A stretch of DNA of 64,000 bases from Eubacteriales bacterium (GCA_045634385.1 JAZRAE010000093.1:5086-69085); one strand, 5' to 3'. Counted from the first letter of the stretch, positions 1,990-15,537 are shown. The notes: a model not told the origin generated them from the sequence alone. Numbers and translations are program-made.

Positions 1990-3075
1990 TTATCTTCCTA
2001 TATCCATTTCTGTTTCAGCATCGAATATGTAAACACTGCTGTAAGGAATAGAGAACTCGAAGTTACTATCCATTTTTGGTGCATTGTGGGGCTCAACCTT
2101 AAGAATCGCCTTATCCTCGCACATATTAATATAGACGTTTGTGTTATCTCCGAGAAGCTCGGTAAGCTCCACGTCAGCCTTCATAACGTAAGCATCGTCA
2201 AGAACGCCGGGATGTATAGCTTCAGGACGGAAACCAAATATAACCATCTTACCTTCAACCGATTGAAGCACCTCCGGTTTAAGCACCTTGTCAAGAGGAT
2301 AGTCGACACCGCCAATATTGACATTGCCGCCGGATACCATAGTCTCAATAAGGTTCATCGGAGGCTCACCAATGAAGCCGGCAACAAACGCATTCGCAGG
2401 CTCAAAGTAGAGCTGATAAGGTGTACCTATCTGTTGAATGTAGCCATCCTTCATAACAACTATTCTATCAGCCATAGTCATAGCCTCGGTCTGATCGTGT
2501 GTTACGTAGATGGTCGTCGCACCAACCTTGCGGTGGATATCGGTAATTTCCGAACGCATCGTTACTCTTTGCTTTGCATCGAGGTTGGAAAGCGGCTCGT
2601 CCATAAGGAAAATACCAACCTTACGGATTATTGCTCTACCTACCGCAACTCTCTGACGCTGACCGCCCGAAAGTGCTCTTGGCTTTCTGTCAAGATAGTC
2701 GGTAAGACCAAGTATTCTGGCAACGTTCTCTACCTTTTTTTCAATAATTTCCTCATCAACGCCCTGAAGCGAGAGGCCAAAGGCGAGATTATCATATACA
2801 GACATATGAGGATAAAGAGCATAGCTTTGGAATACCATCGCTACCTCTCTCTCTCGAGGGCCAATATCATTAACTCTCTTACCGTTAATATAGAAATCTC
2901 CCTTGCTGATATTTTCAAGACCTGCGATCATACGCAGAGTCGTAGACTTACCGCATCCTGACGGGCCTACGAAGACTATAAACTCCCCTTGTTCAATCTC
3001 AAGATTGAAATCGTGAACGGCGTGGAAGCCGTTGGGATAAATTTTGTTGATGTCTTTAAAAGAGAGGTGTGCCAT
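1990..3075 (-). CDS. sugar ABC transporter ATP-binding protein (MalK/MsmK/UgpC type)
   Basis: 361 aa. Walker A GPSGCGKST, signature LSGGQRQR, Walker B FLMDEPLSNLD, and a MalK-like C-terminal regulatory domain. Confidence 0.9.
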   Translation of the reverse strand: MAHLSFKDINKIYPNGFHAVHDFNLEIEQGEFIVFVGPSGCGKSTTLRMIAGLENISKGDFYINGKRVNDIGPREREVAMVFQSYALYPHMSVYDNLAFGLSLQGVDEEIIEKKVENVARILGLTDYLDRKPRALSGGQRQRVAVGRAIIRKVGIFLMDEPLSNLDAKQRVTMRSEITDIHRKVGATTIYVTHDQTEAMTMADRIVVMKDGYIQQIGTPYQLYFEPANAFVAGFIGEPPMNLIETMVSGGNVNIGGVDYPLDKVLKPEVLQSVEGKMVIFGFRPEAIHPGVLDDAYVMKADVELTELLGDNTNVYINMCEDKAILKVEPHNAPKMDSNFEFSIPYSSVYIFDAETEMDIGR

Positions 3076-3110: not shown

Positions 3111-3959
3111 TTAATCCTTGAGAAGCTTATTCATAATTTCTCTCAGATATTTCACCGACTCGGGTATATCCTCGCCTACCGTTCCCTCTAAAACAAGGGT
3201 AGCATCCTTATTATAAGAATATATCTCGGTGAGTATGCGTTCATAATCAAGTATACCCTTGCCTACCGCACACTGACAGAGCTTACCATCAGCCACGGTA
3301 AAATCCTTGATGTGATAAAGAAGAATATCCTTGCCGAACAGCTCGTGTCCTCTGTGAAGGATCGAATACGCTTCTTCATAATTCGAGATATCAAGGTAGT
3401 TATATAAATCAAAAATTACCTTTACGTTATCACGTCCTATATCGGATACAACGTCCGAAAGAACGTCGGGTGAATGGCAGACGTGGTTGAACGCACCTTC
3501 AATAGCAACAGAAGTGCCGTATCGTGTGGCGTAATCTGCAAGCAAGCGGAAGATTTCTGCCACCGTCTTCCTTGCTTCGTCGGTTCTGTTACTTGGATGA
3601 TATCCCCACGGGTCGCCCATAAATGAGCCTGTCTCCGAACCTACAAAACCGCAGGCTAAAGATCCGCAGAGAGAAAGATATTCTTTGAACATCTTAACAC
3701 CGTGATCCGCTTTTTCTTCATTCGGATGTACAGGATTGAAATATGCTCCGACAAGCGCAACCTTCTTTCCCGCTTCCGTTAGTGTTTTTGCTATCTGCTT
3801 TGCCCTGTCTTCAGTCAGGCTTCCCTCGGAATATGATACGCCGTCAATCGATTTATAAGCAACGAGCTGTATTCCGTCAAGATCCCATTCGCAAAGCTTC
3901 TTTACAATATTATCCTCGCCCTTGACACCAAGATCATGAGCGCGTATCATCAGTTTCAT
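3111..3959 (-). CDS. sugar phosphate isomerase/epimerase (xylose isomerase-like TIM barrel)
   Basis: About 282 aa from MKLMIRAHDLG. The ATG overlaps the upstream stop (ATGA). Family assignment is by overall pattern only. Confidence 0.55.
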   Translation of the reverse strand: MKLMIRAHDLGVKGEDNIVKKLCEWDLDGIQLVAYKSIDGVSYSEGSLTEDRAKQIAKTLTEAGKKVALVGAYFNPVHPNEEKADHGVKMFKEYLSLCGSLACGFVGSETGSFMGDPWGYHPSNRTDEARKTVAEIFRLLADYATRYGTSVAIEGAFNHVCHSPDVLSDVVSDIGRDNVKVIFDLYNYLDISNYEEAYSILHRGHELFGKDILLYHIKDFTVADGKLCQCAVGKGILDYERILTEIYSYNKDATLVLEGTVGEDIPESVKYLREIMNKLLKD

Positions 3960-5086
3960 ATAACTCGTCCTCCGAGAATTTCCGTGTAGCAAAGCACGAA
4001 GGGAGCAACACCCTTTGCATCATTCTCCACCACAGGCTCGGATATATAGTATTCATAAGAGCCGTCACGTCTTGTGTTATTTTCGGGACCAAGACCTGCA
4101 ACAAGACATATTCCTCCAAGGTTGAGCTTTCCATCAGCATCAAAGCCGAGATATCTCTTGCAAATACCGTCAAAGGTTTCTTTACCAAGCTCTCGGTAGC
4201 TTGAGTCAAGCACGCCAAGTCTTGCGCCCTTCATCATAGCGTAAGCAATCATACTCGATCCGCTTGTCTCAAGATAGTTGCCCTCACGCCCCTGAATATT
4301 AACAACTTGGTAGTACATTCCGCTCTCGGAGTCACGATATTTTAACACGCCCTCCATCAACTCACGGAAAATCTCACCGATCTCGTACCTTGCCTCACCG
4401 TCTAAAATCTCAATAATATCGATCATAGCAACGGTGAACCAACCTATTGCACGAAGCCAAAAGTTCTTTGAAAGGCCGGTTTCCTTGTCCGCCCAGAATA
4501 TAGAGTGCGAGCAGTCAAGACCGTGGTAATAAAGTCCCGCCTCCTCATCGAACATATATTTGCGAACGTTCTTTATTTGCATTACAACATCGGAAAAATC
4601 TCCATTGCCAAAGGCTTTTGCATACTTAGCGGAGAACACCTGCGCCATATACACTCCGTCAAGCCAAATCTGATTCGGGTATATGAGCTTGTGCCAGAAG
4701 TTGCCTGTCACAGTTCTCGGCTGTGAATCAAGCTGCTCTTTTTGCTTTTCTATGGCAAGGCGATATTTTTCCTTCCCCGTCTTTTCGTAAAGCTCAAACA
4801 AAACTCTTCCCTCGTTGACGTCATCGAGGTTATATTTTTCCTTGTCGTAGCCGAGTATCGAGCCGTCGTCACCAACATAATAGTCAATAAATCGCTCGGA
4901 AAACTCAAAATACTTTTTCTCACCTTTTATGGCTGCAATCTCCATAAGTGCAGTTATCATACAGCCATCTATGTAATTCCAATGAGGCTTCTTTCCCTGC
5001 CTTATACTCTCAATATTCCATATCGGCATATCGGGAGTAGAGTCCTCTATCAGCCTATCAATGTAGGCGTCAATCTTCTTGTACAT
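3956..5086 (-). CDS. GH105 unsaturated rhamnogalacturonyl/galacturonyl hydrolase (YteR/YesR-like)
   Basis: Start MYKKIDAY with a GGAGG RBS 9 nt upstream. Alpha/alpha-barrel pattern (HWNYIDGCM, WLDGVYM, ISEPVVENDAKGV). No signal peptide. Confidence 0.7.
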   Translation of the reverse strand: MYKKIDAYIDRLIEDSTPDMPIWNIESIRQGKKPHWNYIDGCMITALMEIAAIKGEKKYFEFSERFIDYYVGDDGSILGYDKEKYNLDDVNEGRVLFELYEKTGKEKYRLAIEKQKEQLDSQPRTVTGNFWHKLIYPNQIWLDGVYMAQVFSAKYAKAFGNGDFSDVVMQIKNVRKYMFDEEAGLYYHGLDCSHSIFWADKETGLSKNFWLRAIGWFTVAMIDIIEILDGEARYEIGEIFRELMEGVLKYRDSESGMYYQVVNIQGREGNYLETSGSSMIAYAMMKGARLGVLDSSYRELGKETFDGICKRYLGFDADGKLNLGGICLVAGLGPENNTRRDGSYEYYISEPVVENDAKGVAPFVLCYTEILGGRVI

Positions 5087-5188
5087 TACTAAAAACCTCC
5101 ACACGGGTAGGGGTGTACGTTATAAACATCGCTCTTACCTACCTTCACCGTGACTTTGCTCACGGCTATAGGCATCAAGCTGCTCTTG

Positions 5189-6748
5189 TCAGCTGAAGCT
5201 GTTGTTCTCCTCGGTTATCTTGCCAACGTGCTGCGCTATAAGAGATTCACCGCATGCACCGTTAACCTCAACATTTCTCACGGTAAGCTCACTCACGTTG
5301 TCAAAGTACATACCGACTCGCAAAAACGGCTCCATAAACTCACGCATAGCGGGTTTCGCAGGCTTTGCGTTCTCTGAATAGGTGAAGCGCACGTTCTCTA
5401 CCGTTACGCTCTCAATAGGACGCTCGGGTAGGCCGTCTATATAACAGGCAGCCGCCTCACAATCCTCACAAATCATATTCCTGAAGGTGAATTTACCAAG
5501 TCGTGGGGTACGATCATCAATTGGCAGATGTTCCCTCGACCATACGTACTCGCTGTTACGATCGGGATCGCAGCAGTTGTACCACATATTTATTACAATG
5601 GGGGTAATTACTCCCTCCATTTTGAGATTTTCGAATACCACGCCGTCAATTACGGCATCCTTACCTCTGCCCCTGCGAGTCTTGATCCGGAGACCTCTGT
5701 CGGTCTGTCTGAACACACAGCGGTTTACCGTAAGGTTCGTTACACCGCCCGCCATCTCACTTCCGAGAGTAACCGCGCCGTGCCCAAACTGCATCAGGCA
5801 GTTTCTTATCGTATGGCGGTTAGCGGGTGTCTTGAATCTTCTGCCTATGTCAATCTTTCCCGACTTGATGGCTATACAGTCATCGCCCACCGAGAAACGG
5901 CATCCGATTATATTTACTACGTCACACGCCTCGGGGTCTATCGCGTCCGTGTTGGGACTGTCCTTGGGTGCGCGTATATCAAGATCAATAAAATCAACGT
6001 TCTTTGAGAAGTAAGGGTGTAGCTGCCAGGAAGCAGAGTTCTCAGCAATAATGCCATGCACACTTATTCCGTCACAACGGTTAAAGAACAGAAGTCTCGG
6101 TCTGCCGATGGGGTAGCTCTTAACGTCTATCCACCATCCTGCATTTTGCGCATTTCCGTCAACACGCCCCGGACCTATTATCGTAATATCATCTGCATAC
6201 TCGGCAAAAATCAAAGCCTGATGCATATTTACAGCGTTTCCTTCCCACGTGCCGAAATGAATCGTATCTCCGCCGTCAAGGTCGGAAAGCTCACCGGGAA
6301 CTACCGGGTATTTGGATTTATCCGTACTTCCGAGCAGCACCGCTCCTTCTCTAAGCTCAAGTGTCATATGACTCTTTAGGCACAGGGGTGCGGTAAGGTA
6401 AACGCCCTCATCAAGCACGAGTCTTGCCCCTTTAGGCAAACAGTTTATCGCTGTCTGAAGTGCTACGGTATCATCGGTCGTACCGTCACCCTTAGCACCG
6501 AAATCACGCGCCAAAACGGCACAAGTCTCACCCCGTGTAGAGAAAATAAACTCTCCCTCGAGTTTATCCGAGGTCAGAACATATTCCGTAGATGGGGTAA
6601 GTCCGAACAAGGAGAACACGTTGGTGTTTCCCTTGTATGCTTCTTTGCCGTTAATATATACCGTGTACTCACCCTCGGTGTAATACGAGAGGTCATTCTG
6701 CCACTCAAACGCCGCCGAAGATGAAGACACAAATAGTAATTCAAGCAT
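5189..6748 (-). CDS. GH28 exo-polygalacturonase with N-terminal FN3-like domain
   Basis: GAKGDGTTDDTVALQTAI pectate-lyase-fold start, NTDAIDPE, GDDCIAIKSG, GHGAVTLGSE and RIKT motifs of GH28. No signal peptide. Start MLELLF with a GGAG RBS. Confidence 0.8.
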   Translation of the reverse strand: MLELLFVSSSSAAFEWQNDLSYYTEGEYTVYINGKEAYKGNTNVFSLFGLTPSTEYVLTSDKLEGEFIFSTRGETCAVLARDFGAKGDGTTDDTVALQTAINCLPKGARLVLDEGVYLTAPLCLKSHMTLELREGAVLLGSTDKSKYPVVPGELSDLDGGDTIHFGTWEGNAVNMHQALIFAEYADDITIIGPGRVDGNAQNAGWWIDVKSYPIGRPRLLFFNRCDGISVHGIIAENSASWQLHPYFSKNVDFIDLDIRAPKDSPNTDAIDPEACDVVNIIGCRFSVGDDCIAIKSGKIDIGRRFKTPANRHTIRNCLMQFGHGAVTLGSEMAGGVTNLTVNRCVFRQTDRGLRIKTRRGRGKDAVIDGVVFENLKMEGVITPIVINMWYNCCDPDRNSEYVWSREHLPIDDRTPRLGKFTFRNMICEDCEAAACYIDGLPERPIESVTVENVRFTYSENAKPAKPAMREFMEPFLRVGMYFDNVSELTVRNVEVNGACGESLIAQHVGKITEENNSFS

Positions 6749-6750
6749 TT

Positions 6751-7395
6751 TTATACTCCGTTTTTGTTTTTCGCATCCCTTATCATCGAGATGCAAAGGT
6801 TTTTCATACCGATAAAAACAAGATCAAAGGCTACATAGAAGAGTCCGAAGAGTATGGGCTCAACGCCTATGTACACCATATCAGCAGTACCAAGCATAGC
6901 GTTAAGCACGCCGTTGACGGTATTATAGAACCAAACAACGATCATAAGCACCGCAAAAGAGTAAATTACGTTTAAAAACAAATTAACAAGCTTCTTTTTC
7001 GGGAACATCATCCACTTGTCGTTCGCCCCCTCTACCGCCGCGAAAAAGCGGAAGGCGTTGTTGACGAGAATATCCGTCACCAAACCAAGCACGAAAGCAA
7101 GAATCAGAAGCATATTTTCAAAATTTGTTATGAATAATCCAAGTCCCCAAAGGACGAAATAGCACACCGCACCGTTAAACCAAAACTTCATAAACACCGC
7201 TTTTACCCACGCGGGGAGCTTATCAATAAAGTTGTTTGAACGATATTTTTTACCAGGATCAATGCCAAGAGGCTCAAGAGGTTTATGGCTATGAGCGTTA
7301 ACAAGCCTATCGACCGCTTCGCTTTTCAGCTCATAGTGGTTCGTGCTTTCTTCTCTTGCTTCGCCCCCGGGGTGTTTCTTTTGTTTTTTTGACAT
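6751..7395 (-). CDS. uncharacterised membrane protein (60-aa basic cytoplasmic head plus about 4 TM)
   Basis: 214 aa. Hydrophobic segments are visible and I recognise no motif. 2 nt from the GH28 start and 5 nt from the upstream ORF. Confidence 0.5.
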   Translation of the reverse strand: MSKKQKKHPGGEAREESTNHYELKSEAVDRLVNAHSHKPLEPLGIDPGKKYRSNNFIDKLPAWVKAVFMKFWFNGAVCYFVLWGLGLFITNFENMLLILAFVLGLVTDILVNNAFRFFAAVEGANDKWMMFPKKKLVNLFLNVIYSFAVLMIVVWFYNTVNGVLNAMLGTADMVYIGVEPILFGLFYVAFDLVFIGMKNLCISMIRDAKNKNGV

Positions 7396-7400
7396 CAGTA

Positions 7401-7979
7401 TCAGTCCTCTCCGGAAATATCAATCTCTTCTATTTCACCGTTATCCTCAACGTCAATAGAAGTGTTGACCTTCTTAAGAAGCTTTGCAAACAGAGGCTCT
7501 AAAATTACAGTAACTGCAGTCAAAGACATCATTACTATATGTACAATCAAAGCGTTCTGCGCCTCAATTATAAAATAGTTCTTTAACGTAATCTTGATTG
7601 CATCGGCATCATTGTAAACGCCGTTGAATACCTTTACACAATAGATTGCATCTGCTGTAATGATCACCGCAAAGAGGAATAGCATAAGAGCAATCATAAT
7701 CTTGTTTGGTTTTTGTCTCTTTGGAAATGCGTTAAGCATACAAACCATAGAGAGTATGGATAAGAGCATAGATATGAATGCGCAAAGACCCATTCCCATC
7801 TTGTTCATCGTTGCAGTCGTGTTGGATATCTTTGTCAGATTCAACGAAAGAATAACGAATGAAATGAGAAGCATAGCAAGGGGGATATAGTTGGGATTAC
7901 GCTTCAAGGTAACCATAAACTTACGTGCGCTCTCTTTTATGTAAGCCCATATTTTTGAGAAAAATGTTTTCTTTTCCAT
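7401..7979 (-). CDS. uncharacterised 4-TM membrane protein with acidic C-terminal tail
   Basis: 192 aa. Four hydrophobic segments, a basic loop FPKRQKPNK after TM2, and the tail DVEDNGEIEEIDISGED. Confidence 0.5.
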   Translation of the reverse strand: MEKKTFFSKIWAYIKESARKFMVTLKRNPNYIPLAMLLISFVILSLNLTKISNTTATMNKMGMGLCAFISMLLSILSMVCMLNAFPKRQKPNKIMIALMLFLFAVIITADAIYCVKVFNGVYNDADAIKITLKNYFIIEAQNALIVHIVMMSLTAVTVILEPLFAKLLKKVNTSIDVEDNGEIEEIDISGED

Positions 7980-8013
7980 CTTACCGTTCCTTAATATTTG
8001 AATAGGTATATGT

Positions 8014-9078
8014 CTATCTTATTGCGTTGGTTGTTTCCTTATCGAAGAAATGCACTCTGTTGAACGAGAAGACTTCACGATCTCCCTTCTTGTAGTTGCA
8101 CCACTCACGCACCTTTGCCGTTGCTTTATGGCCGCCTACCGTACCGTGTACGAGAGTGTTCTGTCCGAGGTTCTCGTTAAGGGTAATATCCATCTCAAGA
8201 TATCCGTCCTTGTCGGGAATAATATTTTCGGGACGAACACCGAGAGTAACCGTCTTGCCCTGATAATTAGAAAGAATTTCGCATTCGCTATCCGAGAGAG
8301 GATACTTAAAGCCTTGGCAAACTATTGCGCCATTCTCTACAACACCGTCAAACATATTCATAGGAGGCAATCCTATGAAACTCGCAACAAAGATGTTGGC
8401 GGGATTATCATAAAGCTCAAGAGGTGTTCCTACCTGCTGAACGTAACCCATCGACATGCATACGATTCTGTCAGCGAGTGTCAGAGCCTCGGTCTGATCG
8501 TGCGTTACGTAAAGCATAGTCGCACCGAGTCTCTTGTGTAAAAGGAGTATCTCTCGTCTTGTCGCACCTCTGAGCTTCGCATCAAGGTTGGAAAGAGGCT
8601 CGTCAAAGAGGAATACCTTAGGTTTTCTTACTATTGCTCTGCCCATTGCAACTCTCTGACGCTGTCCGCCCGAAAGCTGTCTCGGTTTTTTATTCAGCTG
8701 ATCTGTAAGTCCAAGTATCTCTGCCGCGGCAAGCACCTTTTCGTGTATTACGTTAGGGTCTTCCTTGCGGAGAGTGAGGGAAAATGCCATATTCTCATAG
8801 ACAGTCATATGAGCGTACAGAGCATAGTTTTGGAATACCATCGTTATATCTCTGTCCTTTGCAGGCATTTGAGTAACATCATTGCCATCTATGATCAGAT
8901 TGCCAGAGGTAATATCTTCAAGTCCCGCAACCATACGGAGCGTGGTAGATTTACCGCATCCCGACGGGCCAACGAGAACTATCAATTCTCCGTCCTCAAC
9001 GTCAAGATTAAAATCAAAGACCGCCTGAACGTTATTGTCGTATATTTTGTTTAAGTTTTTTAGACTTATCGAAGCCAT
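8014..9078 (-). CDS. second sugar ABC transporter ATP-binding protein (MalK/MsmK type)
   Basis: GPSGCGKST, LSGGQRQR, FLFDEPLSNLD. Start chosen at MASISLKNL; the GTG at 9111 is an alternative. Confidence 0.9.
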   Translation of the reverse strand: MASISLKNLNKIYDNNVQAVFDFNLDVEDGELIVLVGPSGCGKSTTLRMVAGLEDITSGNLIIDGNDVTQMPAKDRDITMVFQNYALYAHMTVYENMAFSLTLRKEDPNVIHEKVLAAAEILGLTDQLNKKPRQLSGGQRQRVAMGRAIVRKPKVFLFDEPLSNLDAKLRGATRREILLLHKRLGATMLYVTHDQTEALTLADRIVCMSMGYVQQVGTPLELYDNPANIFVASFIGLPPMNMFDGVVENGAIVCQGFKYPLSDSECEILSNYQGKTVTLGVRPENIIPDKDGYLEMDITLNENLGQNTLVHGTVGGHKATAKVREWCNYKKGDREVFSFNRVHFFDKETTNAIR

Positions 9079-9154
9079 ACTTAATACGCCTTTCTTTGTA
9101 CTTTGCGACACGCAATCTCAAAAAAGAACACGTATCACCTTGTCTTTTTTATCT

Positions 9155-9176
9155 AAAAATCGACACGGGTGCCGAC
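9155..9176 (-). terminator. weak intra-operon terminator/attenuator-like hairpin
   Basis: On the minus strand: TCGGCAC-cc-GTGTCGA followed by TTTTT. Lies between the 242-aa membrane ORF and the ATPase gene. Confidence 0.4.
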
Positions 9177-9192
9177 TTTCACCTTTTTTGTT

Positions 9193-9921
9193 TTAATCTG
9201 TTACTGTGTTTTCAGCAAGCTGTTTGCTGTATCCTTCAAGAACCTTTGTCTTATATATGCCGATTATACCGGATGCAATGCAAGAGATAGCGGAAAGGAT
9301 AAGGCATATAACAACCCATGTAAACTGACCGTTTGACATTGCAAGCACCTTCTCAGCACCAATGCTAACGAGTGTAGAGTGGGCTTTCATAGGAATATAG
9401 AATATACGTCCTATCTGCAAAGTACCAACAACGATAAGCAGAATTGCATATCCAAGTTTGTAGCTCTTCACGCCCTCGGAAGAGAGGAAGGTGCAAAGAA
9501 GGAACAGAAGGTTGTATATAACGGATAATCCGATTATATAAGTATAGAAGTAATTACCTACGTCAGAAGAATAAACGCTAATGAAATAAAGAGCGTCAAA
9601 GGCTATACCGAGCAAAGCGAGGGTTGAAGAAAGCTTATTCTTTGCATAACGAAGTCTATCCTTCTTTATTTCATTTCCTTCCCCACCGTAAGGGTGAAGA
9701 AGTCGGCAAGTCTCGTGCCAAAGCCATACAGGATAGCTACCGGTGTTGCCAATATATCTTGACCATAACCATAAAGCGGTAAACAAAAGTGCAACTGTTT
9801 CAATTGCAGAAACACAAATAAGTGCGCCTTTTCCATTTGCTATGGAAATGATCATACATATGAGTGCCAAAGCGCACAAAGAGAGCTCGGAAATAAAGCC
9901 CGCAAAATACTTTTTCTTCAT
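9193..9921 (-). CDS. uncharacterised polytopic membrane protein (about 6 TM)
   Basis: 242 aa, strongly hydrophobic, with no recognisable motif. 3-nt gap to the upstream ORF. Confidence 0.5.
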   Translation of the reverse strand: MKKKYFAGFISELSLCALALICMIISIANGKGALICVSAIETVALLFTALWLWSRYIGNTGSYPVWLWHETCRLLHPYGGEGNEIKKDRLRYAKNKLSSTLALLGIAFDALYFISVYSSDVGNYFYTYIIGLSVIYNLLFLLCTFLSSEGVKSYKLGYAILLIVVGTLQIGRIFYIPMKAHSTLVSIGAEKVLAMSNGQFTWVVICLILSAISCIASGIIGIYKTKVLEGYSKQLAENTVTD

Positions 9922-9924
9922 ACG

Positions 9925-10497
9925 TCAAGCTCCTTCCTCAATAAGCTGTCTTTCGCTTCTCATAAGCAGCACCTTAAGTACCACGTTTGCAATCGAAATA
10001 AGCGTCACTGCCAAGAGAACAACAAATATCGGAATTGAAATATCAAACCAGAAGGTTGACTCGATATACTTTGTGTCATATCTATCAGCAAGTTCCGCAA
10101 GCTTCTCAAAATCTATTAAAAGATACTGCGCTCTGAATGCCATAACGTTAATAAGTGCCCAAATAGAAACTCCTATATTGATAGCGGCATTAAGAGCAAC
10201 GGTAACGTAATTTCCTATGTAATATTTTCTTCTCTTATGAGTATTGAACACGAAAAGTGATACAGCCGACAAAATAAGGGCGATACTCACACCCGTTAGC
10301 TGTCTATTGAAGGGCTGTATGTTGTAATATATTTCCGCTCCCTCGACGTACTTTCTCTTTGAAGTAACGTCTGCATAGTTAAAGAGCGAATCGTAAAGGT
10401 CTGTGACCAGGCCGAGTGAGTAAACGAATACCATCACCGCGGCAATAAGCAAGGCATAGCAAACTATGCGCTGGAGAATCATTTGCTTTTTATACAT
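9925..10497 (-). CDS. uncharacterised 4-TM membrane protein
   Basis: 190 aa. Same layout as the 7401-7979 product (basic loop NTHKRRKYY after TM2, charged tail). Confidence 0.5.
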   Translation of the reverse strand: MYKKQMILQRIVCYALLIAAVMVFVYSLGLVTDLYDSLFNYADVTSKRKYVEGAEIYYNIQPFNRQLTGVSIALILSAVSLFVFNTHKRRKYYIGNYVTVALNAAINIGVSIWALINVMAFRAQYLLIDFEKLAELADRYDTKYIESTFWFDISIPIFVVLLAVTLISIANVVLKVLLMRSERQLIEEGA

Positions 10498-10578: not shown

Positions 10579-10611
10579 GGGGCTTTGGGGAGCTTGAAGC
10601 TCCCCTGCCCC
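10579..10611 (-). promoter_or_regulatory. GC-rich intercistronic stem-loop just 3' of the binding-protein gene (no U-tract)
   Basis: GGGGC...GGGGAGC-ttgaa-GCTCCCC...GCCCC nested stems. Its position is typical of mRNA-stabilising hairpins after SBP genes. Confidence 0.5.
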
Positions 10612-10649: not shown

Positions 10650-12869
10650 TTAGTTAAGAGCCTCGTAGTACTCAACAAGTCTTTCCCAAGCATCATTCTT
10701 GTATGCAAGGTAGGTCTCGCCGCCCATACCGCCTTCGGTTACCTTAGCAGCAACCTTAGCAGCAACCTCAGCTGCGGAAGAACCTACGGTAGAATCCTCA
10801 TAGCCCTTGCAAATGAAGTCTATAAGGAGGTTGGACTTGCCACTGGACTGGGAGAACTTACCGTTGGAGGTAAGGTCGCCAAGCTCGTTGATCTTAGCGT
10901 TCTCATCAGCAGTGTTGGGAAGAACGGTGGGAACAGAGGTCCACCAAGGATTCTCGGTAAGAGCAAGCTCGGGATGCTTGATTACGCCAAGACCTATAGC
11001 GGTAGAGATCTTGCCTGCGCCTTCCTTACCAACTGCATGTGTGCACTGATACTCGAATGCCTGGCTCTTTGCGAAGGAAAGAGTAGATCCAAGGTAAATA
11101 CGAGCATAGTTGGTGTAGTTACCGGATGCGAGTGTCCAGAGTTCCTCATAAGTGGAATCTGCGATAACGGGCATTTCGGTGCCGTTGAAGTTGAAGGTTA
11201 CGTAAGAGCCGTCTGCATTGGTCTTGATGAACTCATCGGGACCGTAGGACATAAGGATCATACCCTTGGGAGAGTAAGCATAGTCGATAAGAGCAAGAGC
11301 TGCGTGGAGCTTATCATCGTTACCTGCAACACCTGCAGCGGAGATGCCCCAACCGTCGGTCTTAACAGATCTCCAGGACTCGGTGAATCTCATGAAGGTC
11401 TCACCGGTACCGTCGTTCCAACGAGCAACAGGAATCATAACTGCCATATACTTCTCGCCATCCTGAAGTTTGGTCTCGTTGTAAACAGTCTGAGTCTGGT
11501 TATAGTCGTAGTGCATAAAGCCGTTGTCATTTGCAAGATAGCTATCGGTCTTACCTGCCTCATTCTTTACGAATGCGGAAGCGATAAGTCCTTCCTGAGC
11601 CATTGCGTTCATTCTCTCGATTGCAACGTAGGTATCTGCCTCCTGACGAGCGTCGTGAAGAAGACCGTCATTGCCTACATAGAGGTAATCCTGTCTGGAC
11701 TCAAGACCTCTTACGCCGAAGAGAGTGCCTGCGAATCTGAACATATCAACCTTTCTCTGGTTGTTGTTAGTTTCACGGGAGAAGAGACCCTGAACGTCTT
11801 CAGTACCGTTAAGTGTCTGGGGGTTAGCAACTACGCAACGAAGAAGAGCTACGAGCTCGTCTGCGTCCCAAGCTGCGTTCTGACCGATGAAGAGGTCAGC
11901 ACGGTTGGTGCCGTAGTATCCGCCGTATGCTGCATCGATGTAATCACGGAGCATATTTACAGCCTCAACGCCGGTAACGGTGCCCTTAGCGAGAGCATCG
12001 TTCATAACCTTAACGATGTTGCCTGCTGCATTGTAGTTCTTGGTTACCTGCTCAACTGCGGTGCCTGCTGCGTTAACAACGTCAACGGTAACAGTGCCGG
12101 AAGTGGGCATGTAAGGATCATAAACTGCTGCTGCAAGGTTCTTGGAAGCGGAAGCGGTGAAGTCGCCCTCGCCGTTAAGAAGCTTCTCAACCCAGTCAGT
12201 TCTCATAAGGGGCATACGCTCGATATCGTTAACACCGTCGAAGTAGGGCGAGAAGTAGATTGCGCCGGTCTCGGTGTTACCGGTAATGGAGAGACGTACG
12301 ATGGGGTTAGCCTCAAGGTAAGCCTTGAAGTTAGGCATATGATCGAGATACTTAGAGATATCTACGAGCTTGCCTGCAACGCCATTCTCGGTAAGGAGAG
12401 AAGCGGTACCGGAAACCACATCAACCTCATCAAGTCTCTCTGCCCAGTACTTAAACTCGTCCTGAGCCTTACCACCGGTGTACTTATCTTCGATTTCGAA
12501 CTTAAGAACGTTCTCAACCTCAACCCAAGTGGGCTTAAGATCGCCTACATTGTAGGTCGTACCGTTGGAAAGAGTGATGGAAGACTGGCCTGCAGGGAAG
12601 ATGTCTGCGTGGAAGGAGAGACCGGTCTTAGTAGAGTTGTAGCCTGTTGCCATACGAAGAACAGTACCTTCTGCATAAGGAAGGTCAAATTCTGCGGGAG
12701 CTTCGGGCTCGTCGTCGGGATTTTCATCGCCGCCGGGGGTGGAGTTGTCGCCACCGGGTGTTTCGTTGTCATTGCCGGTGTCGGGTGCGGGCTTAATGCA
12801 TGCTGTGAGAGTAAAGCTCATAAGCATGATAAGAGCGAGCACAAGAGAAAGGATTCTTGCCTTTTTCAT
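10650..12869 (-). CDS. extracellular solute-binding lipoprotein of the LplA/YtcQ-like sugar ABC family (oversized, 739 aa)
   Basis: Lipoprotein signal MKKARILSLVLALIMLMSFTLTAC, then an acidic G/D/P/E linker. GGAGG RBS. Adjacent to LplB/LplC-type permeases. Confidence 0.8.
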   Translation of the reverse strand: MKKARILSLVLALIMLMSFTLTACIKPAPDTGNDNETPGGDNSTPGGDENPDDEPEAPAEFDLPYAEGTVLRMATGYNSTKTGLSFHADIFPAGQSSITLSNGTTYNVGDLKPTWVEVENVLKFEIEDKYTGGKAQDEFKYWAERLDEVDVVSGTASLLTENGVAGKLVDISKYLDHMPNFKAYLEANPIVRLSITGNTETGAIYFSPYFDGVNDIERMPLMRTDWVEKLLNGEGDFTASASKNLAAAVYDPYMPTSGTVTVDVVNAAGTAVEQVTKNYNAAGNIVKVMNDALAKGTVTGVEAVNMLRDYIDAAYGGYYGTNRADLFIGQNAAWDADELVALLRCVVANPQTLNGTEDVQGLFSRETNNNQRKVDMFRFAGTLFGVRGLESRQDYLYVGNDGLLHDARQEADTYVAIERMNAMAQEGLIASAFVKNEAGKTDSYLANDNGFMHYDYNQTQTVYNETKLQDGEKYMAVMIPVARWNDGTGETFMRFTESWRSVKTDGWGISAAGVAGNDDKLHAALALIDYAYSPKGMILMSYGPDEFIKTNADGSYVTFNFNGTEMPVIADSTYEELWTLASGNYTNYARIYLGSTLSFAKSQAFEYQCTHAVGKEGAGKISTAIGLGVIKHPELALTENPWWTSVPTVLPNTADENAKINELGDLTSNGKFSQSSGKSNLLIDFICKGYEDSTVGSSAAEVAAKVAAKVTEGGMGGETYLAYKNDAWERLVEYYEALN

Positions 12870-12962: not shown

Positions 12963-13853
12963 TTATTCCTTGACGCCGCCCATATTAACTCCCTTTGCAA
13001 AATACTTTTGAATAAAGGGATAAATGATAAGAACGGGAATTATCGAACAAACGATAAGTGCATAGATTACAGAGTCTGATGCGTACGGCTCATTCCAACC
13101 TGTCATAAATTCGGGGTTGGTGAAGTCCTCAAGCTGACGTCTGATAAATACCTGCAGAGGCTGCTCGTACGAATTTGTTATCATCTGACGTGCCCAGAAG
13201 TAACCGTTCCAACGAGAGATTGCAAAGAATAGTGCAACTGTTGCTATAGTAGACTTGCTCATAGGAAGATATACTCGAGTTAATACCTGGAATTCTGTAG
13301 CACCATCAACTATTGATGCTTCCTCAATCTCTGCGGGAACACCCTCAAAGGCATTACGAAGAAGGATAATGTTCATTGCCGCCATACCCATCGAGATTAC
13401 GACAAGCCACTTGTCATCCATAATTCCAAAGGACTCAAATACCTTACCGGTGGCAAGATAGTTAAGATACTGGGGAACAAGACCTGCAGAGAACCACATG
13501 GTAAACACAAGGAAGAAGTTGAAGCCCTTGCGGAACATAAGTCTCTTTTTGGAGAGAGCATAAGCACCGAGGATGGCAACACCCATCGCCCAAAGTGTAC
13601 CGTAGAAGGTGATAAAGAGTGTGTTGGAGTAAGCGTTCCAGAAGAGGTTGTTGTTGAACATTCTGGCAAATGCCTCAAACTGTATATCCTTTGGGAACAA
13701 AATAATCTTTCCGTACTCAACCGCTTCTCTGCCGCTCATCGCAGCGGAGATAGCATATAGGAACGGGTAAAGACAACATACGGCAAACACCGTAAGGAAC
13801 AGATAACTTAAAATTTTAAAGATAAGCTCGGACACTTCTAATTTTCTTTTCAT
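12963..13853 (-). CDS. carbohydrate ABC transporter permease (LplC/YtcP-like)
   Basis: 296 aa, 6 TM, EAA loop IEEASIVDGATEFQVLTRVYLPM. Confidence 0.85.
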   Translation of the reverse strand: MKRKLEVSELIFKILSYLFLTVFAVCCLYPFLYAISAAMSGREAVEYGKIILFPKDIQFEAFARMFNNNLFWNAYSNTLFITFYGTLWAMGVAILGAYALSKKRLMFRKGFNFFLVFTMWFSAGLVPQYLNYLATGKVFESFGIMDDKWLVVISMGMAAMNIILLRNAFEGVPAEIEEASIVDGATEFQVLTRVYLPMSKSTIATVALFFAISRWNGYFWARQMITNSYEQPLQVFIRRQLEDFTNPEFMTGWNEPYASDSVIYALIVCSIIPVLIIYPFIQKYFAKGVNMGGVKE

Positions 13854-13866
13854 ATCTTTGCCTCCT

Positions 13867-14922
13867 TTAGTATAGTGAAACGTCGGATGCCTTACGGGCT
13901 ATCGTATTTGCACTGATAACGAGAAGCATACCAACAATGTTGTTTAACATCTCTGCGGCAGAGGCAAGGCCTGTCATACCGTCGCCTATACCGTATCTTT
14001 GCGCAAATGTGGAAACAACGTCCGCGGTAGCGTATGTTTTATCGTTGTAAAGAAGAAGAACCTTCTCATAACCTATATTGAGAAGTGAACCAATTCTCGT
14101 GATAAGCATAATAACTATGGTAGAGAGAATGCTGGGGAGAACAACGTATCTCATCTGCGCCATCTTACCTGCACCGTCGATCTGCGCCGCCTCGTAGCTG
14201 GTCGGAGATATCGCGATTATCGCTGCGAAGAATACTATAGAGTCATATCCGGCAGTTTCCCAAATACCGCTTATCTGATAAATAGCACGGAAGTAATCCG
14301 GGTTGTTAAGAAGTCCTAAAGCACCCGAATCCGCCGAGATAGCACCAATACCAACGAGCATCTGCGAGATAATACCCATCTCAATTCCCATATCGGATGA
14401 GGGCTGACGGACAAGCATCGTGATAAGAGATGTCATAACAACCGTAGATATGAATTTAGGAAGGTAAGTAATAACCTGATACACGCTTCTTACAATATTA
14501 CTCTTGATCTCGTTGAAGAACAGAGCAACAATAATCGGTGTCGGGAAACCGAACAGCAATCCGTAGAAGGAAAGGAGGAAGGTGTTACGGAACGCACGCC
14601 AGAACTCGGGAGCGTACGTAGGGTGTGAAAAGAGCATATTGAAGTAGTAGAAGCCTGTATAATTCTGCTCTGCCACTCTAACTGCCTCTTCCTTGAACTT
14701 AAATGCTCCGAGAAGCTCGTACATCGGGAAATAACGCCAGAACAGGAACACCAAGAGCATCGGGATAAGCATTAAGTAAAGACGCCAATCCTTGAGAATG
14801 GTAAGTCCGACGTTTTTCCAATGGTTCTTTTCAACCTCATCACGGACAGCCTGCTCCGCATCCTCGCGGTATTTGCCCGTTTGGGAATCAAAAACCAAAT
14901 AATCATCCGCTTTGATTTTCAT
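13867..14922 (-). CDS. carbohydrate ABC transporter permease (LplB/YteP-like)
   Basis: 351 aa, EAA loop YEAAQIDGAGKMAQMRYVVLPS. Confidence 0.85.
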   Translation of the reverse strand: MKIKADDYLVFDSQTGKYREDAEQAVRDEVEKNHWKNVGLTILKDWRLYLMLIPMLLVFLFWRYFPMYELLGAFKFKEEAVRVAEQNYTGFYYFNMLFSHPTYAPEFWRAFRNTFLLSFYGLLFGFPTPIIVALFFNEIKSNIVRSVYQVITYLPKFISTVVMTSLITMLVRQPSSDMGIEMGIISQMLVGIGAISADSGALGLLNNPDYFRAIYQISGIWETAGYDSIVFFAAIIAISPTSYEAAQIDGAGKMAQMRYVVLPSILSTIVIMLITRIGSLLNIGYEKVLLLYNDKTYATADVVSTFAQRYGIGDGMTGLASAAEMLNNIVGMLLVISANTIARKASDVSLY

Positions 14923-14952: not shown

Positions 14953-15537
14953 TTATTCTTCATCTTCCATAGCCTCTCTTTCTCTTTGTAGACGGAAAAG
15001 ATAAGCTTTCTGATCTTCAACAAGGCCGTCAACACCCTTGAGCAACCACAGTATTACCGTTGTAAAAAGCAAGGACAGAACGTCCGAAACAAGAAAGCCC
15101 ACAAGCTCCGAGAAGCCCGCACCAAACGGTAAAGAGAGAAGAAAACGTCCGATAGCAACCGCAACGTAAGCCGACGACGTAAAGAGCAGAGTTTTGAAAA
15201 AGCTCTTTTTGACCGATTCCTTACCGAAAAGCTTGAAGTATATAAGCGATACAAGTGCAAAGAGATTTCCGCCGCAATAGATGAGATAGTGCTCTGCCGA
15301 TGCAGACGATGCTATACAAAACGCAACACCGCCGACTACAGCTATCGCCGCGGCACACAGATTCCATCTGTACATCGCTATAAGTATAAGTGCAAGCGTT
15401 ATCGAAATCGCCATCGGCTGTGCACCAAACCACTTTGATGTAGCAAAAGTCGCTATCAGCTCAAAAACAGCGGTTAAAAAACACAAAATACCAACATCAA
15501 TATTTCGATATTGCTTAAAAGTTATTTGTTTATCCAT
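14953..15537 (-). CDS. uncharacterised polytopic membrane protein (possibly ECF S-component-like); first gene of the locus
   Basis: 194 aa, 5-6 hydrophobic segments, charged tail QREREAMEDEE. The family guess is weak. Confidence 0.4.
   Translation of the reverse strand: MDKQITFKQYRNIDVGILCFLTAVFELIATFATSKWFGAQPMAISITLALILIAMYRWNLCAAAIAVVGGVAFCIASSASAEHYLIYCGGNLFALVSLIYFKLFGKESVKKSFFKTLLFTSSAYVAVAIGRFLLSLPFGAGFSELVGFLVSDVLSLLFTTVILWLLKGVDGLVEDQKAYLFRLQREREAMEDEE

Follow-up and report, generated by a model that had tools for sequence, protein, structure and literature searches.

Five small membrane proteins encoded in a pectin-related locus, on the minus strand of the 64,000-nt stretch of Eubacteriales bacterium DNA analysed here (the window), are best explained, with a probability of about 0.55, as dedicated, co-inherited accessory membrane components of one oligogalacturonide importer encoded by ten genes. 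Their functional dedication to the pectic uptake system, in which the initial annotation of the window had already placed them, is very probable; that they are also stable physical subunits, an association we infer, is given a little less than even odds.

Across about 125 Clostridia MAG loci, this cassette keeps an invariant order: S194, the permeases PermB and PermC, an AlgQ-like substrate-binding protein (SBP), an RNA hairpin, S190, S242, the ATPase NBD1, S192 and S214, usually followed by GH28, GH88 and an isomerase, and then the second ATPase NBD2. The sample comprises 85 loci (80 from GTDB and 5 further) plus about 35 more metagenome loci, divergent cassettes included, and every carrier is a MAG of an uncultured gut bacterium. 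Among 41 relatives, presence or absence of the cassette is all-or-none, and PermB orthologues (74-91% identity) occur in only three genomes, each of which also carries S214 and S242. Every small family is conserved, with many invariant residues, across about 80-125 loci, which shows that the small ORFs are not chance ORFs. Each also occurs only once in a genome where BPD_transp_1 permeases give about 21 matches, indicating that these families are specific to the importer rather than general CUT1 factors. The minus-strand ORFs initially annotated (four small membrane proteins, the embedded MalK-type ATPase, the second ATPase and a fifth membrane protein) were all confirmed at their coordinates, together with the gaps of 3 nt and 5 nt within the two pairs of small genes, and co-occurrence across the loci revealed strict co-conservation of the small proteins with the embedded ATPase and GH28/GH105. 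A literature search gave no paper describing the cassette.

Judged by its sequence, the core of the cassette is a type I (CUT1) importer, with two EAA-bearing BPD_transp_1 permeases and MalK-type ATPases. PermB (13867..14922; this and all following coordinates are on the minus strand) is an LplB/AlgM1-type permease with the EAA loop EAAQIDGAG...LP, and matches AlgM1 (PDB 4tqu) with E = 4.6e-61. PermC (12963..13853) is of the LplC type, with the EAA loop EEASIVDGA...LP. A regular expression for this loop found it in 64/65 PermB and 66/67 PermC family members. The presumed SBP (10650..12869) is an enlarged, divergent AlgQ-like lipoprotein of 739 aa with an invariant Cys24 in a lipobox-like N-terminus; searching Pfam and PDB with the single sequence gave no match, and the family profile matches AlgQ1 (1y3n; E = 4e-7) over only about 100 of 727 positions. 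Just after its stop codon lies a GC-rich hairpin lacking a U-tract (10579..10611; -25 kcal/mol, fold z = -3.7). Hairpins of -15 kcal/mol or stronger follow the SBP stop in 50/50 loci, with a median of -24.7 kcal/mol compared to -10.1 kcal/mol for shuffles, and probably act as an intra-operon stabiliser or attenuator. The enzymes of the locus are a GH28 of the cytoplasmic exo-polygalacturonase type (5189..6748, assigned by Pfam), a GH88/GH105 unsaturated uronyl hydrolase (3956..5104; Pfam Glyco_hydro_88, E = 9e-85) and a xylose-isomerase-like TIM-barrel protein (3111..3992; Pfam AP_endonuc_2) that is syntenic in most loci. GH4 and AraC genes adjoin several cassettes.

Both ATPases contain ABC_tran and OB_MalK domains. 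NBD1 (8014..9111; MalK/UgpC-type, with a probable start ATG at 9078 giving 354 aa) lies between the two small-protein pairs in every locus, and is 53% identical to NBD2 (1990..3075). The initial annotation regarded the locus as having one ATPase more than a single importer needs. However, NBD1 and NBD2 form ancient, separate, monophyletic clades exclusive to the cassette (n = 83 for NBD1; n = 71, support 1.0, for NBD2). Their Walker A/B, Q-loop, signature and H-loop motifs are intact and at least 90% conserved in both clades, and the EAA-docking groove of NBD1 is canonical and identical to that of NBD2. The embedded ATPase is thus probably not extra, and these features fit one heterodimeric motor serving the two EAA-bearing permeases. 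On sequence grounds we lean slightly towards such a heterodimer; to our knowledge, all characterised CUT1 motors are homodimers. The evolutionary rates of NBD1 and NBD2 covary (evolutionary rate covariation, ERC, 0.43-0.49) to an extent comparable to PermB and PermC (0.54-0.59), but this is not specific, since soluble cytoplasmic proteins covary generally (0.59 for GH28-GH88). ERC between NBDs and permeases is -0.09 to -0.27 although their contact is certain, so this measure reports a shared selective regime and not contact.

All five small proteins are predicted to have their N-terminus inside, four with 4 TM helices and one with about 6. The latter, S194 (14953..15537; 194 aa), is the first gene of the cassette, and ends in a conserved acidic, amphipathic tail (EDQKxYLxRL). 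It is found in every locus whose contig extends far enough upstream (63/85), establishing this fifth orphan ORF as real and co-conserved. S190 (9925..10497; 190 aa) is a 4-TM protein with the basic loop NTHKRRKYY; its AF2 model (pLDDT 90.7, pTM 0.85) retrieved nothing but generic 4-TM bundles in Foldseek, with E values of at least 0.12. The neighboring S242 (9193..9921) had been described as a 242-aa protein with about 6 TM helices. Its ORF stands, but the family core (9193-9669, residues 85-242) has 4 TM helices, and the N-terminal extension (9670-9921, residues 1-84) that supplies the two others is peculiar to this genome: the 80 homologues all have a length of about 160 aa and begin near residue 85, as seen in the occupancy map and by inspection of the DNA and RBS, and in a same-genus relative the gene encodes 160 aa and shows an ATGA overlap. 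S192 (7401..7979; 192 aa, 4 TM) has FPKRQKPNK as its basic loop and a C-terminal tail that is conserved and acidic, and 18/46 family members give weak claudin/PMP-22 matches. S214 (6751..7395; 214 aa, 4 TM) has a 60-aa basic cytoplasmic head and is the most conserved of the five, with the motifs KFWFNGAVC, VNNxFRF, NDKWMMFP and VEP. Its homologues form 642 clusters (396 representatives), and its AF2 model (pLDDT 78) had no match in a PDB fold search.

None of the five has a match in Pfam, NCBIfam or the PDB sequences, and their description as unassignable was borne out by Pfam and hhalign for DUF624 and ECF families as well. A DUF624/YesL identity was rejected, with no Pfam match at E <= 1 and hhalign probabilities of at most 3.1% for all five (control 100%); DUF624 has no match in the whole genome of the window. 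ABC permease domains were likewise rejected. Alignment to PermB and PermC gave at most 1%, while the positive controls of hhalign reached 96.8-100% (96.8% for the PermB-PermC pair), and none of the 395 sequences from the five small families contains the EAA loop that the canonical permeases carry (regular expression), in agreement with the initial annotation. One or more of the proteins could also be ECF-type S components using a shared EcfAA'T module: S194, with about 6 TM helices, has the size of an S component, and the genome encodes one EcfT and three ordinary S components, so that a motor would be available. This is extremely unlikely, given that ECF_trnsprt (PF12822) matches 0/43 S194 members and S190 (P0004) at E = 0.75 only, hhalign gives at most 3% for all five against a control of 100%, and no ECF-S fold matches the confident model of S190. 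The families are also unrelated to one another in sequence, hhalign detecting no homology among them. The paralogy proposed for S190 and S192 therefore has no sequence support (BLASTP E = 3.1, hhalign probability 0.3%), although their shared layout is real: the two have in common only topology and the position of the basic loop, at residues 85-93 in both.

The initial annotation had suggested that S190, S242, S192 and S214 may form a membrane module of their own that draws its energy from the embedded ATPase. NBD1 would then drive a second, non-canonical transporter whose membrane domain these four proteins make up, with PermB and PermC using NBD2 or a shared MsmK. The position of NBD1 between both pairs in every locus is compatible with this proposal, as are the 16 TM helices that the four proteins jointly provide and the other MalK-like ATPases of the genome, which could serve PermB and PermC. 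The rates of S214 covary with those of NBD1 (0.38 and 0.70 in disjoint datasets) and those of S242 do so weakly, making a regulatory or contact link of these proteins to the ATPase possible. However, no member has an EAA/coupling-helix motif or homology to an ABC membrane domain, the models of S190 and S214 are simple four-helix bundles that match no transporter-like fold, and NBD1 keeps the same canonical EAA-docking groove as NBD2. Moreover, S190 covaries with PermB (0.33, 0.66 and 0.39), and thus with the permease/SBP side, not with NBD1. Wherever the contig is long enough, these four proteins together with NBD1 are never seen apart from PermB, PermC and the SBP. A second transporter hence appears very unlikely. 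The covariation blocks do not track gene position; the covariation of S192 with the SBP (0.44-0.55) was not replicated in the metagenome set (0.13).

The gene junctions indicate that S190 is translationally coupled to S242, and S214 to GH28. Between S190 and S242 the junction is at most 15 nt in 98% of loci, with the two genes overlapping in 55% (median -1 nt), and the S214-GH28 junction is at most 15 nt in 84% of 77 loci (median 2 nt), with the probable GH28 start, an ATG at 6748 with an RBS, lying 2 nt after the S214 stop in the window. On a single metagenome contig (L173), an S214-like gene heads a GH28-KdgK-KduI-aldolase operon, with no cassette genes in the 3 kb of contig upstream. No fusion of any of the small proteins to a partner was found in about 125 loci.

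The pairing of S214 with GH28, including this one stand-alone case, would suit a transient or peripheral role of the small proteins, as chaperones for assembly or insertion of the importer, as ATPase regulators resembling inducer exclusion, or as pure enzyme tethers. So would the covariation of S214 with NBD1 and with GH28 (0.37 for the latter, which fails Bonferroni correction), and the conserved cytoplasmic head, loop and tails of S214, S192 and S194. In addition, the small proteins have a mean identity of 47-57%, compared to 72-84% for the core, and this roughly twofold faster divergence is a pattern more usual for peripheral partners than for core subunits. Nevertheless, five families kept in strict order over wide divergence would be much for chaperoning one importer, and conservation peaks within the TM helices rather than the soluble parts (in TM1 of S214, 14/25 columns are conserved at 90% or more). 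The 27 Lachnospiraceae-type loci also keep S214 where GH28 is not adjacent. Overall, a purely transient or peripheral role seems rather unlikely.

A separate membrane function in pectin use, such as end-product export or the handling of counter-cations or protons entering with the polyanionic oligogalacturonides, co-inherited through shared need only, is less likely still. The invariant charged or polar residues in the S214 TM helices (K70, D108, N112/113, E179 and D191) would suit an ion or solute path, and we know of no precedent for extra subunits in CUT1 importers. Yet the five unrelated proteins of 4-6 TM helices have no internal repeats, and the S190 and S214 models match no channel or transporter fold. 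Rigid interleaving with importer genes and translational coupling exceed what shared need would require, and ERC links S190 to PermB.

In the accessory-component reading that we prefer, the importer would have an LplABC/AlgM1M2-like type I CUT1 core of two permeases, an enlarged AlgQ-like SBP and an NBD1/NBD2 heterodimer. The small proteins would not be a second transporter but would pack around this core through their conserved TM helices, S190 and its translationally coupled S242 on the permease/binding-protein side, and S214 near NBD1 on the cytoplasmic side, as would S194 and, weakly, S242. GH28, the cytoplasmic exo-polygalacturonase, might in addition be anchored to the membrane by S214, and incoming oligomers would then be hydrolysed at their point of entry. 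The most extended version, a scaffold of all five proteins joining a heterodimer-driven type I importer to GH28 as an uptake-hydrolysis metabolon, in which S214 would be the adaptor facing both enzyme and ATPase, is speculative and on balance doubtful. If true, the importer would have nine subunits, an architecture not described so far for any binding-protein-dependent ABC importer. More generally, a well-studied type of transporter probably has undescribed extra parts, because five unrelated families and two dedicated ATPases are invariably inherited along with this pump.

Short membrane proteins are true regulatory subunits in several ABC systems, such as CbiMNQO/NikMNQO (CbiN), LptB2FG-LptC and MlaFEDB. 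These offer a functional analogy only: they belong to other ABC classes (ECF type, exporters or extractors), have no sequence relationship to the cassette proteins, and none has five extra subunits or is a binding-protein-dependent type I sugar importer. TogMNAB of Dickeya dadantii is a CUT1 oligogalacturonide importer whose operon includes an ATPase gene; unlike the cassette, it has four genes, a single ATPase, a normal-sized SBP and no small membrane proteins. The pectin-fragment CUT1 systems of B. subtilis, LplABC(D), YtcQ-YteP-YtcP and YesOPQ, are energised by the shared ATPase MsmX. They resemble the cassette in their lipoprotein SBP, their LplB/LplC-type permeases and their link to enzymes of GH4, GH28 and GH105 that act on galacturonides after import. 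Their operons, however, have no ATPase gene whereas the cassette carries two, and the sole extra membrane gene they contain encodes YesL, a DUF624 protein to which none of the five families is similar. AlgM1M2SS-AlgQ1/AlgQ2 of Sphingomonas sp. A1 (4tqu, 1y3n) is related through the homology of PermB to AlgM1 and the reach of the SBP profile to AlgQ1, and is likewise a type I system for importing acidic uronates, as oligomers or polymers, that combines a MalK-type ATPase with two EAA-bearing permeases. There, a single ATPase, AlgS, works as a homodimer, AlgQ is about 500 aa long and the solved complex contains no additional membrane subunits, whereas the cassette has two distinct conserved ATPases, an SBP of 705-920 aa and, as known from its genes, five co-conserved small membrane proteins.

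The five small membrane proteins, named here by their length in residues, lie in a minus-strand cassette whose ORFs run from S194 (14953-15537) through the two EAA-bearing permeases PermB (13867-14922) and PermC (12963-13853), a 739-aa lipoprotein presumed to be the substrate-binding protein (SBP, 10650-12869), S190 (9925-10497), S242 (9193-9921) and the embedded MalK-type ATPase NBD1 (8014-9111) to S192 (7401-7979) and S214 (6751-7395). Genes for the pectin enzymes GH28 and GH88/105 and for a xylose-isomerase-like TIM-barrel protein follow on the same strand, then that for a second MalK-type ATPase, NBD2 (1990-3075), beyond which UxaC is encoded on the plus strand. The positions listed in the initial annotation agree exactly with these ORFs, and the gaps within the S190/S242 and S192/S214 pairs are 3 and 5 nt, as it had stated (3-5 nt).

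Gene order, derived by ORF calling and iterated HMM assignment, was compared in three sets: divergent members of S214, 80 loci from GTDB species genomes (all from MAGs; of 153 confirmed relatives, these 80 were kept) and 80 metagenome loci for which a short, divergent subfamily of S214 served as the seed. This subfamily was found in none of 400 phylum-sampled genomes. All sets display one invariant order, S194-PermB-PermC-SBP-S190-S242-NBD1-S192-S214, continued 3' either by GH28-GH88-isomerase-NBD2 or at once by NBD2; directly 3' of S214, 75 loci have GH28 and 27 an ATPase gene. Among 85 loci with S214, S192 is present in 84, S242 in 81, S190 in 79 and SBP in 78, and the missing genes coincide with contig ends. 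Even cassettes with very divergent small proteins keep the order, with GH28, GH88, AraC and Mem_trans still adjoining. PermB orthologues (74-91% identity) occur in 3 of 41 relatives, the only ones that also carry S214 and S242, while the others have PermB paralogues only (at most 42% identity). Locus order and the 41 relatives thus show co-inheritance of the small proteins with the embedded ATPase, bearing out the co-conservation on which the initial annotation's proposal depended. An apparent split of the cassette in two relatives' genomes (G020 and G001) was rejected as assembly fragmentation, since the contigs end inside it. Each small family is single-copy in the genome of the window, compared with about 21 BPD_transp_1 permease hits, so that the small proteins go with this one importer, not with the CUT1 class at large. 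These data firmly establish a ten-gene uptake cassette, whose type I importer is ordinary except that five novel families of membrane proteins obligately accompany it. A full-text literature search returned no paper describing it.

The 80 GTDB loci come from Lachnospiraceae, Oscillospiraceae, Acutalibacteraceae, Erysipelotrichaceae and unclassified Clostridia, and several of the MAGs carry ruminant or deer gut sample titles. The cassette has spread vertically and probably also horizontally. In complete loci the core proteins average 80-84% identity across different bacterial families (0.84 for PermC), a level of sequence identity that suggests recent horizontal spread among gut Clostridia. One complete cassette (L081) lies on a contig binned to a MAG titled Corallococcus sp., a myxobacterium; this is most likely a case of mis-binning, the alternative being horizontal transfer out of Clostridia. 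Some loci depart from the common layout. In L091, NBD2 lies upstream of S194, SBP has 807 aa, and a second SBP-like gene (802 aa) takes the place of GH28 after S214; this variant may serve a different substrate. Another locus (L105:104-3968) is apparently a decayed or rearranged cassette. Its genes are, in order, S194, PermB and S192 (both truncated, to 267 and 131 aa), an S214 of only 164 aa and GH28, and it lacks PermC, SBP, S190, S242 and NBD1. In three Oscillospiraceae-type loci (L083:10548-13274, L092:5301-7958 and L095:10691-13348), GH28 and GH88/105 are fused into one protein of 885-908 aa.

None of the five small proteins matches Pfam or NCBIfam, and scanning every member of three of the families singly gave no recurrent family. 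Weak claudin/PMP-22 matches in 18 of 46 S192 members (best E = 0.003) were set aside as an echo of the 4-TM topology, and a marginal PDB profile match of S194 to EMC4 (E = 0.006) was dismissed as spurious. Profiles of the four families that flank NBD1 (S190, S242, S192 and S214) retrieved no PDB sequence at E <= 10. S214 comprises 642 database clusters at 90% identity, none with a Pfam domain and the few source-named ones called hypothetical, and 396 representatives at 50% identity. The known families that the initial annotation had named as possible identities did not account for any of the five either: in hhalign comparisons the DUF624/YesL profile gives a probability of at most 3.1% (control 100%) and the ECF S-component profile at most 3% (control 100%), with an ECF match in 0 of 43 S194 members. 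Within the order, DUF624/YesL is widespread (40 of 61 genomes); it has no match in the genome of the window, where one EcfT and three ordinary ECF S components are located elsewhere.

The families are also mutually unrelated, since all-against-all hhalign comparisons among them and with PermB and PermC stay below 10% probability, against 96.8% for the PermB-PermC control. The suggested paralogy of S190 and S192 is therefore unsupported (BLASTP E = 3.1; no homology by hhalign), while the common layout noticed for them, with a basic loop at residues 85-93 and an N-in 4-TM topology, is found in both. A duplicated module of two small proteins and an ATPase was likewise rejected, as neither S190/S192 nor S242/S214 are homologous and generic MalK-like ATPases are nearer relatives of NBD1 than NBD2 is.

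By the positive-inside rule, the N- and C-termini of all five proteins are predicted to be cytoplasmic; S214, for example, has 19.5 K+R inside and 0.2 outside. The confident AF2 model of S190 (pLDDT 90.7, pTM 0.85) is a bundle of four membrane helices with two further, short helices in its loops, and Foldseek matches it to nothing beyond generic 4-TM proteins and designed bundles (E >= 0.12, none significant). In the S214 model (pLDDT 78, pTM 0.65), four long helices stand behind a poorly ordered 60-residue head, and the best Foldseek hit in the PDB has E = 1.9, which is no match. Across 50 complete loci the small proteins have a mean pairwise identity of 47-57%, compared with 72-84% for the core, and diverge about twice as fast. 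Their conservation peaks in the TM helices, the pattern expected for helix-helix packing in a complex. In the window, S242 consists of the usual protein of about 160 aa and 84 extra N-terminal residues with two hydrophobic helices, encoded by about 250 inserted in-frame bases (9670-9921, minus strand). The extension begins 3 nt past the S190 stop, at an ATG served by the ribosome-binding site GAAGGAG, and has a counterpart in 0 of 80 homologues, including a 75%-identical one from the same genus. Because an even number of added helices keeps the topology, we take it as real and lineage-specific.

The two ATPases are 53% identical. In a tree of 154 cassette ATPases and the other MalK-like proteins of the window's genome, all 83 position-1 ATPases form one exclusive clade and 71 of 72 position-2 ATPases another (support 1.0), and NBD1 clusters with the generic MalK-like ATPases of the genome, not with NBD2. 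Both clades retain canonical Walker A, Q-loop, signature, Walker B-Glu and H-loop motifs and the helices of the EAA groove, and the 45 clade-fixed differences between them lie outside the catalytic and groove motifs. Elsewhere in the genome (C127:14170-16059), a 629-aa protein is 65% identical to NBD1 over its N-terminal 250 residues and has a long C-terminal extension; its gene adjoins two BPD_transp_1 permease genes. The initial annotation had counted one ATPase too many for a single importer. Two distinct, competent ATPases match the two EAA permeases, which points to one importer with a putative NBD1/NBD2 heterodimeric motor, as judged from these sequences, and not to a spare ATPase. All characterised CUT1 motors are, to our knowledge, homodimers, so that the heterodimer is proposed here with caution. 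The initial annotation had also raised the idea that the four small proteins flanking NBD1 form a separate module driven by this ATPase. The small proteins have no coupling motif: the EAA loop, already reported missing, is present in 0 of 395 small proteins, compared with 64 of 65 PermB and 66 of 67 PermC sequences. The S190 and S214 models show no transporter-like fold, and NBD1 looks built for docking on an EAA loop. For these reasons a separate module is unlikely.

The most economical mechanism would make the five proteins accessory membrane components of the importer. Junction gaps, taken from the start codon nearest the upstream stop, a convention under which every gap tends to come out too short, have a median of -1 nt for S190-S242 (<=15 nt in 98%), 2 nt for S214-GH28 (<=15 nt in 84%) and 10 nt for NBD1-S192; the SBP-S190 junction (median 121 nt) is never tight. 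S190/S242 and S192/S214 would act as two translationally coupled pairs. The GH28 start in the window is most likely the ATG at 6748, 2 nt past the S214 stop. Directly after the SBP stop lies a GC-rich hairpin without a U-tract (10579-10611, minus strand; -25 kcal/mol, z = -3.7), and a comparable hairpin occurs in this gap in 50 of 50 complete loci (median -24.7 kcal/mol, compared with -10.1 for shuffles). It separates the binding-protein half of the cassette from the other half, which extends from S190 to NBD2. Stabiliser or attenuator hairpins are often found after binding-protein genes; by analogy, this one probably stabilises the mRNA or acts as an attenuator within the operon, setting the ratio of SBP to membrane components. 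A scan with promoter and terminator consensus sequences did no better for promoters than with shuffles.

Relative-rate covariation (ERC), in which branch lengths of each family on a fixed concatenated topology yield relative rates to be correlated, recovers the known partners PermB-PermC (0.54-0.59; GTDB-only 0.48, metagenome-only 0.65) and PermC-SBP (0.48-0.54; 0.31 and 0.36), and gives 0.43-0.49 for NBD1-NBD2. S190 covaries with PermB (0.33 and 0.66; GTDB-only 0.39, metagenome-only 0.23) and, in the metagenome-only set, with PermC and SBP (0.44-0.47). S214 covaries with NBD1 (0.26-0.27; GTDB-only 0.38, metagenome-only 0.70) and GH28 (0.37). The S192-SBP signal (0.37-0.55; GTDB-only 0.44, metagenome-only 0.13) failed to replicate and is not relied on. 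The two resulting blocks are independent of gene position: S194 adjoins PermB, yet covaries with cytoplasmic proteins, and S190 covaries more with PermB than with SBP, although the SBP gene sits between them, which speaks against linkage or recombination alone as the source of the pattern. The certain NBD-permease contact is missed (-0.09 to -0.27), so ERC measures a shared selective regime and not contact. Conserved loops facing outside or inside as the cause of the blocks were only partly borne out and are not relied on, since conservation in the external loops of S190 and S192 is unremarkable.

In the proposed mechanism S190 would face the permease side, and S214, S194 and, weakly, S242 the ATPase and enzyme side, with GH28 linked to the entry point through S214; we infer the physical association, the heterodimer and this tethering role. 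No S214-GH28 fusion occurs in about 125 loci or the top 150 representatives, where the fusions seen are GH28-GH88 only. On a 7.85-kb metagenome contig (L173:2971-7604), an S214-like gene (187 aa, short head), preceded by a promoter-like AT-rich region, heads a GH28-KdgK-KduI-KDPG-aldolase operon, its stop 3 nt ahead of the GH28 start; the contig sequence upstream, roughly 3 kb, is free of cassette genes. This only stand-alone case seen is a lead, from one locus, towards GH28 as the closest partner of S214. A second candidate (L141) was rejected, a 193-aa ORF directly upstream being probably a divergent S192.

Among gut and rumen Clostridia, over 150 species keep a pectin-fragment importer that has two distinct ATPases of its own and is tied to five further families of membrane proteins. 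These families lack annotation, a solved relative and homology to one another, and the alignments made here could define five new Pfam-type families. Since pectin is a major dietary fibre and the hosts are uncultured fibre degraders, the cassette is useful as a marker and a candidate for functional reconstitution; an adaptor or subunit role, if true, would offer a concrete case of import-hydrolysis coupling. It would also add to the textbook plan of type I ABC sugar importers, an assembly of four parts made up of one binding protein, a pair of permeases and a dimeric ATPase. PermB is clearly homologous to AlgM1 of the Sphingomonas alginate importer (E = 4.6e-61), and AlgM1M2SS is the nearest solved system. 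The lipoprotein, highly conserved at 72% mean identity in 50 complete loci, has no Pfam or PDB match as a single sequence; its family profile matches AlgQ1 (E = 4e-7) along only about 100 of 727 positions, so that most of the protein has no structural assignment. The matches to AlgM1 and AlgQ1 suggest that the core is an LplABC/AlgM1M2-AlgQ-like uronate-oligomer importer with an enlarged and divergent SBP.
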